From Candidatus Woesebacteria bacterium GW2011_GWB1_39_10 (GTDB lineage: Bacteria > Patescibacteriota > Microgenomatia > UBA8517), in contig LBVU01000003.1 of the NCBI GenBank assembly GCA_000993205.1, forward strand, positions 161,008-225,007: a stretch of 64,000 bases of DNA, given 5' to 3'. Shown here in pieces: positions 25,522-40,773 of the stretch (its first letter is position 1; every line of letters starts with the position of its first letter). The position numbers were made by a program, and so were the translations under genes. A model generated the notes under the pieces. It was not told where the DNA came from. It searched no databases and saw only the letters and a list, made by a program, of their open reading frames with translations.

Positions 25522-25565
25522 AATTAAAATCTAATAATTAAAAACTAATAATCATAATTTAAAAC

Positions 25566-25970
25566 TTAAAACTTTTTACCCTTCATTGTTAGCAGGCTTG
25601 ATCCCAGCATCTTTCCGATTTCTTTGATTTCTCTTGTAAGATCTACAACCTTTGAGCTATCTACAAGATTAGAATCTTTCAGAAGAGATAACCAGTATTC
25701 AGTTTCGTTTGCGCTTTTGAGAGATATCTGAAAGTAATTGATAAAATCTTTTTTTGATGATGATGCTTTGGCTTCAATTATATTTGCACCAACAGAAAGT
25801 GCCGCTCTCAATAGTTGGTCGGATATTATCCAGTAGACCCTTTTTGATGGAAAATTGCTGACAAAATTAATAATACTAAGTGAAAAGTGATAACTTCTGT
25901 ATTTCAAGTCAGATTTGAGATTTAAATTATGGTTATTAGATATTAGTTTTGAATTATTAGTTAGTATCAT
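25566..25970 (-). CDS. four-helix-bundle protein (23S rRNA intervening-sequence protein / DGR Avd-like family), copy A
   Basis: ISDQLLRAALSVGANIIEAKASSSKKDFINYFQISLKSANETEYWLSLLKD matches the family core (GANI.E ... A.gSa.E..YWL.L). Confidence 0.7.
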   Translation of the reverse strand: MILTNNSKLISNNHNLNLKSDLKYRSYHFSLSIINFVSNFPSKRVYWIISDQLLRAALSVGANIIEAKASSSKKDFINYFQISLKSANETEYWLSLLKDSNLVDSSKVVDLTREIKEIGKMLGSSLLTMKGKKF

Positions 25971-27028
25971 TGTTGAACGGTTTGAGCATTTGGTTGAATT
26001 GGATTACTAATAGTTGGCATTACTTCTTGAATAATTCTTCTTCCCTGAACCAAAATCGGCGGAATAAGTTGACCGGAAGCATCAAAAGTAACAGGGCTAA
26101 ATTCGTAACCATCTTTTTCTGTAACAATACTGTACTTCCCGTTTTCAAGTGGGGTTATGGTTATAAAATGCCCGACCTTGTTACTTCTTAAGGCGCGTAC
26201 AGGGCGACCTGAGGAATCTCTTATTTCCATAATCGCTCCTTCTATTATTTTTCTTTCCGCATCCACCACCTGTCCGACCACTACGTTCGGGTAAGTTGGG
26301 GGATTGGGAGGGGCCGCGTCCACTGAGAAAATGGCGGCTGTTGTTGAAACCATCTCGTTTCCAGCGATAATCGGATTTACTTGAGTAGCTGATATTTGTG
26401 GAGAGGTATAAACCGATTCCTGACGTTTTTCTTCTACAACAAGATGCGGCATCTGGGCGGGGACTTTAACAGGAACGTTTTGGGGAATAGCGATTTCGGG
26501 TTTGGTTACAGGCTCAGACTGTTGAGGAACGGGGACAACGGCGGGAGTCTTTGTTGGTGTTACGAGTCCCGAGGCAATTCCCATCAAAGTTGCAAAAAAT
26601 CCTTTCTCTGCATTCTCAAGCTTGTCTGTGGGCTCTGATTTCTGGCCCGGGGATGACAAATACTGTTCAACGGCTTGTTGTTGTGGCCCGGGAACGGTAA
26701 CTGGAGTGGCCGGTTCATCCTGGAATATTTTAGGGGGAATGGTTATCTTTTTCCAAAAGAACTCGGTTGGAGCATAAATAGCTCTGAAAAAGGCAAAAAT
26801 CCACTTTTCTAAGGGGCGTTCTTCAAGGGGAAGGAATGCCAAGGCAACCCCCAAAATTGCCGAGACAATTACAAAAGGCCATTTAATAATTCCTACAAGT
26901 GGGGCTGAATAAAAGATAAGAGCCACCAGAAGTCCTCCTGCAAGTTGAAAGAATTGCTTAAGGGTCATATCTCCCACCAACCTGAATTGGTATGAGCTTA
27001 TATTTTGCGGTATTGCGTGTTGTTCCAT
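25967..27028 (-). CDS. PrgI/VirB3-like T4SS membrane protein with a C-terminal carboxypeptidase-regulatory-like beta-sandwich domain
   Basis: N-terminus YQFRLVGDMTLKQFFQLAGGLLVALIFY plus two TM helices resembles PrgI-family VirB3 homologues; C-terminus VVGQVVDAERKIIEGAIMEIRDSSGRPVRALRSNKVGHFITITPLENGKYSIVTEKDGYEF. Confidence 0.55.
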   Translation of the reverse strand: MEQHAIPQNISSYQFRLVGDMTLKQFFQLAGGLLVALIFYSAPLVGIIKWPFVIVSAILGVALAFLPLEERPLEKWIFAFFRAIYAPTEFFWKKITIPPKIFQDEPATPVTVPGPQQQAVEQYLSSPGQKSEPTDKLENAEKGFFATLMGIASGLVTPTKTPAVVPVPQQSEPVTKPEIAIPQNVPVKVPAQMPHLVVEEKRQESVYTSPQISATQVNPIIAGNEMVSTTAAIFSVDAAPPNPPTYPNVVVGQVVDAERKIIEGAIMEIRDSSGRPVRALRSNKVGHFITITPLENGKYSIVTEKDGYEFSPVTFDASGQLIPPILVQGRRIIQEVMPTISNPIQPNAQTVQQ

Positions 27029-27033
27029 AAATT

Positions 27034-27484
27034 AAGGTAAAAAGGCGAGAAGGTAAAAGAGTAAAAACATTACTGCTTTATTCTTTCTCGAACAGTTCTC
27101 CTTGAACTGTAAAGTAATTTCTTGACTTCGATTAGAAGTCCAAATGATTTTTCAAATTCGAGTTGGGAGATAAAATGTAAATCGAGACAAACATCAAGAT
27201 AAACTTCAAGTTCAGTCAACGATCCAATCGAAATTGTTAAAAATCTTGCATACTCAGCCGAGGTCCCTTTCGAATAGCCTTCAACGATGTTTGCCATTAT
27301 CGAAATCGCCGCCCTTCTCATTTGAGGAACAAGTGTGTATATCTCAGTCTTTGGAAAATCCGAAGTTAACCGATAAGTTATCAGAACCAAACTTTTTGCT
27401 TTTTGATAGATAATTAATTTTTTATAGCTAGTTAGGTTGGACAGGTTTAGCATTTTTTTACTCTTTCACTCTTTTACCTTTTCA
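27034..27484. repeat. cassette B: inverted repeats bracketing four-helix-bundle gene copy B
   Basis: Left arm aaggtaaaaaggcgagaaggtaaaagagtaaaaa (27034-27066) against right arm tttttactctttcactcttttacctt (27456-27481); the core aaggtaaaagagt is perfectly reverse-complementary. Confidence 0.5.
27070..27453 (-). CDS. four-helix-bundle protein (23S rRNA IVS protein / Avd-like), copy B
   Basis: MRRAAISIMANIVEGYSKGTSAEYARFLTISIGSLTELEVYLDV. Confidence 0.7.
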   Translation of the reverse strand: MLNLSNLTSYKKLIIYQKAKSLVLITYRLTSDFPKTEIYTLVPQMRRAAISIMANIVEGYSKGTSAEYARFLTISIGSLTELEVYLDVCLDLHFISQLEFEKSFGLLIEVKKLLYSSRRTVRERIKQ

Positions 27485-27545
27485 ATCTATAGCGTAGCTC
27501 GTGAAGTGTTTAATTCAAGCGGTATCCTTTTTCACACCCCGTTTG

Positions 27546-27554
27546 TGGTATAAT
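27546..27554 (+). promoter_or_regulatory. extended -10 promoter element (TGgTATAAT) 6 nt upstream of the ATG, giving a probable leaderless transcript
   Basis: tggtataat at 27546-27554; ATG at 27561. Confidence 0.35.
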
Positions 27555-27560
27555 TTAGCC

Positions 27561-39244: not shown

Positions 39245-39591
39245 AGTGTTGGAATAGACGGGCTAAGAATAAAGTCCCAACTGCCAAATACAAATTGTCC
39301 AATCAGGGCGGCTAGAACAAATGCCCCGGCCGAGAAAGCTAATCCTATTATTGTCTGATAAATTTTTGCCCAAGCACCCTCCACTTTTTTGGCATCATCC
39401 CCAGCGGACATAAAGGCATATCCTGCAAGCACCAAATTGAAAAGGGCATAAATTCCGGCGCCGACAATAAGAAACTGAAGCACTTTTTCGATTAGACCAC
39501 CAATGGCGGGGCCTGCGTCTGTTCCATATTGAGAGAGAGCTGTAGGGGCTTTAATTGTTCCAAAAGGATTCGCGTCTGATAAGAGTTTCAT
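39241..39591 (-). CDS. pilin-like small membrane protein, paralogue 5
   Basis: YAFMSAGDDAKKVEGAWAKIYQTIIGLAFSAGAF; 4-nt overlap with paralogue 4. Confidence 0.5.
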   Translation of the reverse strand: MKLLSDANPFGTIKAPTALSQYGTDAGPAIGGLIEKVLQFLIVGAGIYALFNLVLAGYAFMSAGDDAKKVEGAWAKIYQTIIGLAFSAGAFVLAALIGQFVFGSWDFILSPSIPTL

Positions 39592-39888
39592 TTATTGATT
39601 TGGTAAAATTGGAACATTGGTAATATTCCCAACTAATTGTACTATCCAGTAGGATGCAAATACAATAACAAAGCCAATAATGGCACTTGTAACGGTTTTT
39701 TTGGCTTGTTCTGCCTTTTGCGGATCGGATTGCCCCGCGCTTGCAATCATTCCGATCCCGCCCATGATAAAGAAAAATAGGAGGATTAAACCGGAAACAA
39801 CAAAAGCAATATTGAGAAAGAGGGAAACAAGATCTCCTATCTTTCCGATTTCTCCGAAGGGAGATTTGAACATTGCGTTTATATTCAT
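39592..39888 (-). CDS. pilin-like small membrane protein, paralogue 6
   Basis: IGMIASAGQSDPQKAEQAKKTVTSAIIGFVIVFASYWIV; the overlapping 138-aa ORF 39551..39967 in another frame is judged spurious. Confidence 0.5.
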   Translation of the reverse strand: MNINAMFKSPFGEIGKIGDLVSLFLNIAFVVSGLILLFFFIMGGIGMIASAGQSDPQKAEQAKKTVTSAIIGFVIVFASYWIVQLVGNITNVPILPNQ

Positions 39889-39893
39889 AAATT

Positions 39894-40229
39894 TTATTTG
39901 TTAAAAGGTTCACCGAATCCTCCCGTGCCAGTTGATTTAAAAATCTGTGCAAGTAATTGAACGACAAGAAAGGCTGTTATGACTATTACAAATCCAATTA
40001 GAGCGTTGGTAATTTTACCTTGTGCTCCTTGAATGGCTTTTGGGTCACCGCGGGACGTCATCATCTGCAGACCTCCCATGACTAAATAAATTAATAATGC
40101 AATACCGGCGGCTCCAAAAATGTATGGCAATACAGCACCCATTATATCTGCAAGCTTGGAATCCGGACCAAAAGTTGCGTCTGGTAGACCGTTGGTTTGA
40201 ATACTATTTAAATCTAATTGTGCGAGCAT
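39894..40229 (-). CDS. pilin-like small membrane protein, paralogue 7
   Basis: LQMMTSRGDPKAIQGAQGKITNALIGFVIVITAFLVV. Confidence 0.5.
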   Translation of the reverse strand: MLAQLDLNSIQTNGLPDATFGPDSKLADIMGAVLPYIFGAAGIALLIYLVMGGLQMMTSRGDPKAIQGAQGKITNALIGFVIVITAFLVVQLLAQIFKSTGTGGFGEPFNK

Positions 40230-40337
40230 TTATAAAATTATTCTAATTGACGTAATTATACTAGAAAATTGTTCTAATTATTTTAATTATACTAATTATT
40301 CTAAATAATACCCAACACCCAGTTTCCAATTTAGAGC

Positions 40338-40768
40338 AATTAGAAATTAGAATAATTAGGTTAATTTACCCATCTTCTGGTAAATCGAATTAAATATTAA
40401 GTTTAGCTCTTTTGCTTCTGTCCAGATAACTTTTATTTTCTCTTTTTGCCCAGGACAAGCCGTTGCCAGCATTCTTAGAAAATGTTTTGACTCTCTTGCC
40501 TCCTTTTTGCAAATTCCAATTTTATGCTTAAAATCTTTACCACTTTCTGCGTCGTCTGCTTCGCAATAATTTGCACCGACACTTGTTGAACATCTCACCA
40601 ACTGGCTAACTAGGGGGTCTGTAATTATACTTTTGGACAATTCTTTGCAGAACTTAATTACATTTTCTCCAAACTTGGCAGTTCTTTCTTCCAGGTCATA
40701 TTTTTTTGAAGCTTCAGACATTGGTTTTTATTTAGGTCAATTAGGAATTAGAATAATTAGGTTAATTG
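40338..40768. repeat. cassette E: 29-nt direct repeats (28/29 identical) flanking four-helix-bundle gene copy E, plus an inverted partial copy at about 40293-40305
   Basis: aattagAaattagaataattaggttaatt at 40338-40366 and aattagGaattagaataattaggttaatt at 40740-40768; the first copy contains the gene's stop codon; ctaattattctaa at 40293-40305 is the reverse complement of the core. Confidence 0.55.
40356..40721 (-). CDS. four-helix-bundle protein (23S rRNA IVS protein / Avd-like), copy E
   Basis: LVRCSTSVGANYCEADDAESGKDFKHKIGICKKEARESKHFLRMLA. Confidence 0.7.
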   Translation of the reverse strand: MSEASKKYDLEERTAKFGENVIKFCKELSKSIITDPLVSQLVRCSTSVGANYCEADDAESGKDFKHKIGICKKEARESKHFLRMLATACPGQKEKIKVIWTEAKELNLIFNSIYQKMGKLT

Positions 40769-40773
40769 TCAGT

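Follow-up and report, generated by a model that had tools for sequence, protein, structure and literature searches.

The stretch of DNA under investigation, 64,000 nucleotides (nt) of contig LBVU01000003.1 from Candidatus Woesebacteria bacterium GW2011_GWB1_39_10 and hereafter referred to as the window, contains between 18 and 41 kb a conserved type IV secretion system (T4SS)-like island. Its genes encode a series of T4SS pilins, a large membrane protein, and PrgI-like, TraC-like, and intein-bearing VirB4 proteins, and the gene order pilins - P931 - TM573 - PrgI - TraC-like - VirB4 is kept in 46 related Woesebacteria/Shapirobacteria loci. Located within the island are five small open reading frames (ORFs) encoding four-helix-bundle (4HB) proteins, each of which, together with its flanks, will be referred to as a cassette (A to E). 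The five lie on the minus strand within the interval from 25.5 to 40.8 kb, and the other 48 kb of the window contain no further ORF matching the family profiles PF05635 or TIGR02436. A search with Rfam revealed no rRNA in the window, and the five cassettes are all positioned between protein-coding genes.

The assignment of the five ORFs to the 4HB family, proposed in the initial annotation from the sequence, is confirmed by profile searches. The scores lie above the curated cut-offs for all of them, namely 50-109 bits versus 33.8 for PF05635 and 57-101 bits versus 24 for TIGR02436, with that of cassette C arising from the N-terminal half alone. The amino acid sequence identities among the five proteins range from 24 to 49%. 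Their second helix carries the motif R-x3-S-x3-N-x2-E described for the family (PMC3936711), and in the alignment R34, S38, N42, and E45 are invariant. The cassette D protein is similar in sequence to that of PDB entry 2RLD (E=1.7e-15), which has five chains.

Purifying selection acts on the 4HB protein of cassette D, where the gene is intact, and decay is seen in cassette C. The former shares 95% amino acid identity with its orthologue in locus L010, with a ratio of nonsynonymous to synonymous substitution rates (dN/dS) of about 0.05. Cassette C, which is antisense to both of its neighbours, is a pseudogene. The frameshift previously noted in it is borne out and lies near 28640, with the C-terminal half of the protein in another frame, and an internal deletion is present as well; the copy in locus L011 served for comparison. 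Its true end is at 28507 and not, as first given, at 28501.

Avd, the accessory protein of diversity-generating retroelements (DGRs), has a fold homologous to that of the 4HB proteins, and DGRs are common in the candidate phyla radiation (CPR). The cassettes might accordingly be viewed as orphan accessory genes that serve a reverse transcriptase elsewhere in the genome. Proteins A and B indeed show a weak similarity to bAvd/DivGenRetAVD, yet all scores are below threshold (NF033474, 36.5 for A and 27.3 for B versus a cut-off of 80; PF22296, 27.1 and 22.5 versus 40), and five copies so divergent from one another, placed in unrelated junctions, do not constitute a DGR layout. We regard this explanation as extremely unlikely. 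No RVT domain was observed in the 30 window ORFs scanned, which included the neighbours of the cassettes and the unidentified ORFs of at least 180 amino acids (aa), some of them without any Pfam hit. Likewise, no repeat of the template repeat/variable repeat (TR/VR) type is present, the only direct repeats of at least 35 nt in the window being unit arrays and a duplicate in cassette E. The earlier remark that the window holds neither a reverse transcriptase nor a TR/VR pair is thus borne out within this scope.

Each of the five ORFs is bracketed by a pair of AT-rich inverted repeats, hereafter referred to as the arms, which are separated by 340-460 nt. Those surrounding cassettes B, C, and D had been recognized before and are confirmed at 30-52 nt and 77-83% complementarity. 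In cassette B the repeat extends over 31 nt at 77% (27452-27482 / 27040-27070) with a 20-nt core at 90%, in cassette C over 30 nt at 83%, and in cassette D over 52 nt at 79%. Cassette A was originally thought to lack a repeat on its right side, which had been placed inside the PrgI-like coding sequence. As can be seen in Table 1, it does possess inverted arms, which are 53 nt in length and 75% complementary. The 5' arm was overlooked because it lies within the annotated N-terminus of cassette A itself. Specifically, the ATG of cassette A overlaps the PrgI-like stop codon (ATGA), and its first ~20 codons form the 5' arm. This N-terminal extension is retained in the A-type orthologues found at the same junction in loci L146-L148. 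With respect to cassette E, a direct repeat that includes the stop codon is indeed present, but it encompasses 38 nt at 92% identity (40329-40366 / 40730-40767) rather than the 29 nt reported, and there is an inverted partner as well. The 20-nt core of the latter is 90% complementary to 40748-40767, and the extended alignment covers 59 nt.

The inverted repeats of all five cassettes are above chance (0/500 dinucleotide shuffles each, z 6.0-8.2), and no other long-range inverted repeat found when the entire window was scanned ranks above them. Composition-matched shuffles were employed for arm significance in place of the RNAduplex energy, which was dropped as a genome-wide statistic because the energies of random GC-rich pairs are lower than those of the AT-rich arms. 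Two additional inverted repeats, at 17470/17913 and 53498/53905, were considered as degenerate cassettes and rejected; both are chance matches across ordinary genes. Predicted structures of the sense transcripts of cassettes A-D, both minimum free energy (MFE) and ensemble, have the arms paired with one another through 23-39 base pairs across 340-380 nt (36 in cassette D, the whole-cassette fold of which has z=-5.0). The arms of cassette E were paired by alignment only.

Table 1. Positions of the cassette ORFs, their arms, and a related hairpin in the window.
Feature	Position	Strand	Remarks
Cassette A ORF	25566..25970	-	134 aa; PF05635 E=1.2e-26, TIGR02436 E=3.3e-29
Cassette A 5' arm	25911..25963	-	7-nt units; inside N-terminal coding part of ORF; 39 arm-to-arm MFE pairs
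Cassette A 3' arm	25521..25573	-	outer end touches TraC-like ATG (25521-25519)
Cassette B ORF	27070..27453	-	127 aa; PF05635 E=1.9e-31, TIGR02436 E=7.4e-29
Cassette B 5' arm	27452..27482	-	AAGGTAAAAGAGTGAAAGAGT...; 24 arm-to-arm pairs in MFE fold
Cassette B 3' arm	27034..27070	-	end 5-11 nt ahead of PrgI-like ATG (27028)
Cassette C, decayed 4HB gene	28507..28853	-	N-terminal half PF05635 E=2.1e-15
Cassette C 5' arm	28860..28889	-	TAATTAG / GAAATAG 7-nt units; period-7 array
Cassette C 3' arm	28488..28517	-	overlaps stop codons of C and AbiEii gene
Cassette D ORF	33670..34026	-	118 aa; PF05635 E=2.5e-19
Cassette D 5' arm	34030..34081	-	begins beside stop codon (34082-34084) of 931-aa gene
Cassette D 3' arm	33600..33651	-	end 2-5 nt before start of 573-aa membrane protein (TTG 33597 / ATG 33594)
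Cassette E ORF	40356..40721	-	121 aa; PF05635 E=3.1e-13
Cassette E 5' arm (direct-repeat copy 1)	40730..40770	-	9-nt units AATTANNCT
Cassette E direct-repeat copy 2	40329..40366	-	overlaps last codons and stop codon of ORF
Cassette E 3' arm	40256..40315	-	core 40285-40304, conserved in E-type relatives
ORF-less hairpin, 7-nt units	12674..12758	-	yidD stop to yidC start; period 7 by Tandem Repeats Finder (TRF)

The arms are inverted arrays of short units, 7 nt in length in cassettes A-D and 9 nt in cassette E. Sequence identity at a lag of 7 nt is 0.54 in the 5' flanks and 0.50 in the 3' flanks of 69 metagenomic relatives, and 0.45 and 0.43, respectively, in the five cassettes of the window, versus 0.31 in AT-rich control DNA. 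For the subfamily containing cassettes A and D, the arm consensus consists of NNCAAAA units around a ..AACCACAAC.. core. Arrays of 7-nt units defy unambiguous alignment for covariance analysis, and co-variation of the arms was judged by a comparison of cognate with non-cognate pairs. Cognate arms match better, with a mean score of 20.7 versus 14.1; the 5' arm of cassette C has a better pairing partner in the 3' flank of cassette E than in its own 3' arm. A better match of cognate arms would not be expected under neutral divergence from a common ancestor and points to their co-evolution. The arms are not simply copy-specific, as initially described, but are periodic arrays with a family-level consensus and not unique sequences.

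This architecture extends well beyond the window. Flanking inverted repeats are present at 61 of 69 testable metagenomic 4HB relatives (0/100 shuffles) and at 4 of 252 control ORFs of 90-200 aa from the same loci. For ten plasmid-borne homologues from Cyanobacteria, Alphaproteobacteria, Gemmatimonadota, and Bacteroidota, the flanks are inverted arrays of 7-8-nt units in nine and direct arrays in one. The latter, from Pseudanabaena (L138), has (AAAAGCT)x12 upstream and (AAAAGCC)x10 downstream. On the cyanobacterial plasmids L138, L139, and L141 the array-armed 4HB genes lie at the cmr2/cmr3 or cas6/cas4 junctions. The occurrence of 4HB genes near cas genes was earlier taken as a functional association (PMC3936711), and such genes inside cas operons are also documented in PMC10910872. 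The plasmid-borne copy from Azospirillum is located inside large subunit rRNA (Rfam) at the helix-45 site and is flanked by inverted GACRGAG units. It is a classical 23S rRNA intervening sequence (IVS) with the same build as the cassettes of the window. Within CPR bacteria, 23S_rRNA_IVP ORFs have been reported in rRNA insertions (PMC11270868).

One of the four bracketed control ORFs encodes a protein of the GxxExxY type (TIGR04256 / PDDEXK_3; L113:1636-2016) and is surrounded by a perfect 41-nt inverted repeat. Plasmid GxxExxY genes are positioned between radA and a gene for an FAD-dependent protein, between ade and the mannose-1-phosphate guanylyltransferase gene, and between fabD and fabG, and inverted CACAGAG-type arrays are observed at two of six (L151 and L152). 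Locus L154 is also listed among the GxxExxY loci. Brackets of this type may carry GxxExxY genes as a second kind of cargo.

The cassettes fill the whole spacer from the stop codon of one gene to the start codon of the next, mostly in the sense orientation. The base of the cassette A stem, for example, lies 3 nt downstream of the stop codon of PrgI on one side and adjoins the ATG of the TraC-like gene on the other. Within the metagenomic set, the outer arm ends are at a median distance of ~4 nt from the upstream same-strand stop codon and ~9 nt from the downstream start codon, and the upstream and downstream neighbours are co-oriented in 48/54 and 42/54 cases, respectively.

Empty sites, for which the initial annotation suggested looking in related genomes, do occur. 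Site A is empty in 46/46 of the related Woesebacteria/Shapirobacteria loci. In the closest relatives, L010 and L011, whose PrgI and TraC-like proteins are 89.5% and 95% identical to those of the window, the junction reads ...CAATAAtcATG..., with the stop and start codons separated by 2 nt. The more distant loci L146-L148 (PrgI 49-69% identical) contain at this same junction an A-type cassette that is 69-79% identical. A site that is empty in close relatives and filled in distant ones implies either precise loss or repeated site-specific gain. Site D is empty in at least ten loci, is occupied in L010 by the orthologue mentioned above, and in L016 contains an unrelated cassette with only 33% identity to D. 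At least two 4HB lineages, about 35% identical to each other, have occupied site B. On the basis of these comparisons, the cassettes are gained, lost, or replaced independently of the conserved T4SS-like operon around them, and the empty sites lend support to the earlier suggestion that they might be mobile.

The cassettes might instead be resident components or regulators of the T4SS/pilin operon, with the repeats serving as ordinary processing or attenuation signals. In favour of such a role, all five copies cluster in a 15-kb part of the island, the remaining 48 kb of the window being free of them, and cassette D is under purifying selection. In most relatives, however, the operon is intact without 4HB genes, and a strict co-occurrence of the two was not observed. 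The same cassette types are encountered at ileS/recO, at htpX/obg, at cas genes, and inside rRNA, and cassette C is a pseudogene. Furthermore, the possibility that the flanking repeats are ordinary terminators finds no support in the arms, which are AT-rich and not terminator-like. None of 14 terminator-like matches falls on an arm, and the number of such matches is at the level of shuffled sequence. The same is true of promoter consensus matches in the region, none of which is on an arm. Both the terminator/attenuator and the promoter readings were rejected, and a resident role for the 4HB genes is considered very unlikely.

Cassette E allows the boundaries of the element to be defined. More than 8000 proteins belong to its subfamily, and across CPR phyla their identities are 70-86%. 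Copies that are 77-81% identical occupy the same pilin junction in other Woesebacteria, and E-type copies 72-74% identical lie at ileS/recO in a Zambryskibacteria genome and at htpX/obg in a Daviesbacteria genome. In the alignment of E-type copies, similarity extends from AATTAACCTAATT... just past the upstream gene to ...AATTAGAA just before the next ATG, and the flanks beyond these ends are unrelated. Conserved ends within unrelated flanks define a discrete element. The 5' arm of the window copy is identical to that of the Zambryskibacteria copy, L157, except for a 2-nt indel. The direct repeat of cassette E is absent from the E-type relatives L155, L157, L158, and L160, and it is therefore a copy-specific duplication, with the inverted partner representing the canonical arm. 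The 3' arm region of cassette E also contains a 31-nt tandem duplication (40234-40294; 2.0 copies, 83%, TRF). Given this and the 38-nt duplicate of the 5' arm, the window copy is a rearranged one. Note that in L157 (2860-3112) ~200 extra nt separate the 4HB stop codon from the 3' arm. A second small ORF there overlaps the 4HB stop codon (ATGA) and is, by eye, winged-helix-like.

Taken together, these data indicate that the five loci are probably discrete, insertion-prone cassettes of ~0.45-0.55 kb, of the IVS type and situated in intercistronic spacers. In such a cassette, inverted unit arrays would form a long, imperfect stem with a 4HB gene (S23p/Avd-like, PF05635) in its loop. The cassette would be co-transcribed with its host operon, and the pairing of the arms, as modeled in the predicted folds, would fold the insert away and bring the stop and start codons of its neighbours as close together as they are in an empty site. 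Folding out could either preserve translational coupling or, by analogy with rRNA, present a double-stranded substrate to RNase III, and it would make the insertion tolerable. Here we infer the RNA steps. The enzyme that moves the cassette would not be encoded in it.

A stem-bracketed 4HB ORF in protein-coding intergenic DNA, having the architecture of an rRNA IVS, had been surmised at the outset, and the family, the folds, and the Azospirillum IVS all agree with it. To our knowledge, ORF-bearing IVSs of 23S rRNA have remained an isolated curiosity ever since they came to light in the early 1990s, with the function of the protein not known and the idea of mobility never tested. The ORF-containing IVSs of 23S rRNA (the Leptospira, Coxiella, and Xanthomonas/Brucella type; S23p) share with the window cassettes the family PF05635/TIGR02436, a size of ~0.4-0.5 kb, an ORF that lies in the loop of a terminal-inverted-repeat stem and is sense with respect to the transcript of the host, and heptamers in the arm region. 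The IVS of Coxiella, for instance, has a 28-bp stem that is cut by RNase III as well as tandem GACAGAT heptamers (PMC4990558). The window cassettes differ in that they occupy intercistronic spacers of protein-coding operons and not an rRNA helix tip, that their AT-rich arms are ~80% complementary without a G-U bias, and that A-type copies have a translated 5' arm.

A plausible model for the binding of the 4HB protein to the arms is provided by the DGR protein bAvd of the homologous fold family. The Avd pentamer binds an RNA stem-loop beside its own gene, with its five protomers gripping the RNA through flipped-out bases, and base pairing joins the 3' codons of avd to RNA further downstream (bioRxiv 10.1101/2023.10.23.563531). 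By analogy, a 4HB pentamer may bind the periodic stem of the cassette. The two systems differ in that neither a reverse transcriptase, among the ORFs scanned, nor TR/VR was found in the window and in that the scores with Avd-specific hidden Markov models are below the cut-off.

Several observations weigh against the interpretation of the cassettes as IVS-type elements that fold out of the transcript. In the predicted fold of cassette E a local hairpin wins, and the arms are unpaired. The complementarity of the arms averages about 81%, with every type of mismatch present. A count of their transition mismatches revealed no G-U enrichment and, indeed, a slight reversal, with 88 being G-U-compatible in the sense strand versus 128 of the A-C/C-A type. 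The pattern at site A fits precise loss as well as repeated gain. No target-site duplication is visible at site A when filled and empty loci are compared, at site D, or at five E-type junctions, and neither a recombinase or nuclease in the cassettes nor a mobility intermediate was seen. Finally, period-7 arrays are common in cassette-free spacers and occur even inside coding regions. A scan requiring 18 of 24 matches yielded 19 such arrays in the window versus 0.0 in shuffles, 14 of which are not cassette arms; with the more stringent setting of 18 of 21 matches only four were obtained. The arrays need not, therefore, belong to cassettes.

This last point raises the question of whether the 7-nt arrays are simple repeats, independent and genome-wide as in Cyanobacteria or Beggiatoa, at which 4HB genes merely sit or persist. 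The 14 arrays outside the arms fit such a scheme, as do the ORF-less arrays or hairpins that occupy the same junctions in other genomes and the intergenic heptamer arrays known from Beggiatoaceae, Cyanobacteria, and Bacteroidetes (PMC4679880). If this were the case, however, bracketing would not be expected to be so rare among control ORFs of the same loci (4/252), the arms would not be found together with the ORF both in unrelated contexts and inside rRNA, and unit variants would not be common to both arms of one cassette. For these reasons, independent repeats are judged an improbable explanation.

The lack of a G-U excess, with G-U-compatible mismatches if anything under-represented, and a complementarity of ~81% make a role of the arrays at the level of DNA a live rival. 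In that case, the inverted arrays would be terminal binding sites, similar to multi-site transposon ends, for a 4HB oligomer or a host factor, movement would be carried out by a host recombinase, nuclease, or polymerase, and the RNA stem would be a by-product. Such a scheme would account for the conservation of the E-type arm sequence across phyla, beyond mere pairing, for a unit consensus at the family level, and for copies with direct instead of inverted arrays (the duplicate in window cassette E and the Pseudanabaena copy). It would also accommodate the nuclease-fold GxxExxY/PDDEXK_3 cargo in a like bracket (L113 with its perfect repeat, L151, and L152). It is countered by the absence of a target-site duplication at all junctions examined and of any transposase or recombinase linked to the cassettes, and by the co-variation of cognate arms. 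In addition, RNase III is known to cut the rRNA copies of this element (PMC4990558), and the arm mismatches of the Azospirillum rRNA copy are mostly G-U. A DNA-level element is accordingly regarded as possible but rather doubtful, and IVS-type cassettes acting through RNA are preferred.

Miniature inverted-repeat transposable element (MITE)-like elements resemble the cassettes in being small, in having inverted ends, in their presence/absence polymorphism and unrelated contexts, and in having ORF-less hairpin derivatives at equivalent sites. The cassettes differ in lacking a target-site duplication or a known cognate transposase, in having ends that are periodic arrays differing by lineage, and in being inserted exactly between stop and start codons. 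Hairpins or arrays of like units without an ORF are located at site A in L029 and at site D in L024. In the window, the hairpin between yidD and yidC (Table 1), which belongs to an rpmH-rnpA-yidD-yidC operon, has 27-nt arms that are 89% complementary and a fold with z=-2.9. This hairpin is a candidate for a cassette relative that lacks an ORF.

The short tandemly repeated repetitive (STRR) heptamers of Cyanobacteria are intergenic heptamer repeats. Intergenic arrays of the heptamer TAACTGA have been described in Beggiatoaceae, Cyanobacteria, and Bacteroidetes, in a paper that states no link to 4HB proteins (PMC4679880). Like the cassette arms, these arrays consist of tandem 7-nt units in spacers beside start codons and sometimes extend into coding sequence, and their taxonomic range resembles that of genomes rich in 4HB paralogues. 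They differ from the cassettes in that they were described as direct repeats without a gene, whereas the cassettes have inverted pairs around one protein family.

Other period-7 arrays of the window are positioned as follows. The tsaD coding sequence holds four, at 2555-2592, 2730-2773, 3047-3086, and 3150-3194, the third of which shares the unit AAGAATT and its flanks with the arrays at 12677-12713 and 33534-33570. The arrays at 33527-33575 and 36752-36787 reach into the coding regions for the N-terminal signal/membrane segments of the 573-aa and 931-aa genes, such that the hydrophobic leaders of both are encoded by repeated 7-nt units. The spacer between the TraC-like gene and VirB4 (24763-24834) is in all of its 72 nt a one-armed array with ~9 copies of GAAAATT in the sense strand. 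It is without a fold (z=+0.9), and the same junction in L011 contains TAGAATC units.

With respect to the surroundings of the cassettes, the VirB4-like ATPase (21187-24762) contains an intein with a LAGLIDADG endonuclease domain, and its homologue in the L001 contig is split or shorter. Two paralogous pairs of DUF6922 and AbiEii (type IV toxin-antitoxin) genes lie on the opposite strand at 27501-28489, between cassettes B and C, and at 37230-38118. The pilin junction that holds the second pair in the window is occupied in L024 by a 4HB cassette. A gene for a large serine recombinase at 59594-61105 partly overlaps an opposite-strand tRNA gene (59555-59626), an arrangement (59555-61105) possibly indicative of an integrated element. 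The window also contains a LOOT RNA and the tmRNA (63629-63737 and 46690-47059).

The presence of IVS-type 4HB cassettes in intercistronic spacers is real, statistically solid, and general, and the mechanism set out above is only partly supported. No description of stem-bracketed 4HB cassettes outside of rRNA was found in the searchable literature, although remarks on non-rRNA copies may have been made in the founding era of the field. The findings point to a far wider family of cassettes, for which rRNA would be just one landing site. How translationally coupled genes can tolerate an insert of 0.5 kb between them is a further question that arises. The empty and filled sites, together with the copies shared across phyla, make the mobility of IVSs testable, and the periodic arms represent a concrete candidate for the ligand of the 4HB protein.

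In its broadest and still tentative form, the proposal is that 4HB genes with inverted arrays, probably along with those for GxxExxY, might constitute widespread, unrecognised mobile cassettes that reside in rRNA helix tips and at operon stop/start junctions in many bacterial phyla, with the 4HB pentamer as the array binder and as a free-standing forerunner of the DGR protein Avd. ORF-less relatives would explain part of the heptamer arrays of Cyanobacteria, Beggiatoaceae, Bacteroidetes, and CPR, such that the cassettes would be a possible source of hitherto unexplained arrays in several phyla. If this is true, the reported "association" of 23S_rRNA_IVP with CRISPR-Cas or other systems would reflect insertion and not function. 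Caution is called for in inferring function from gene neighbourhood, since the 4HB genes of cas (PMC3936711, PMC10910872), T4SS, or fab operons may be there as passengers and not as partners.

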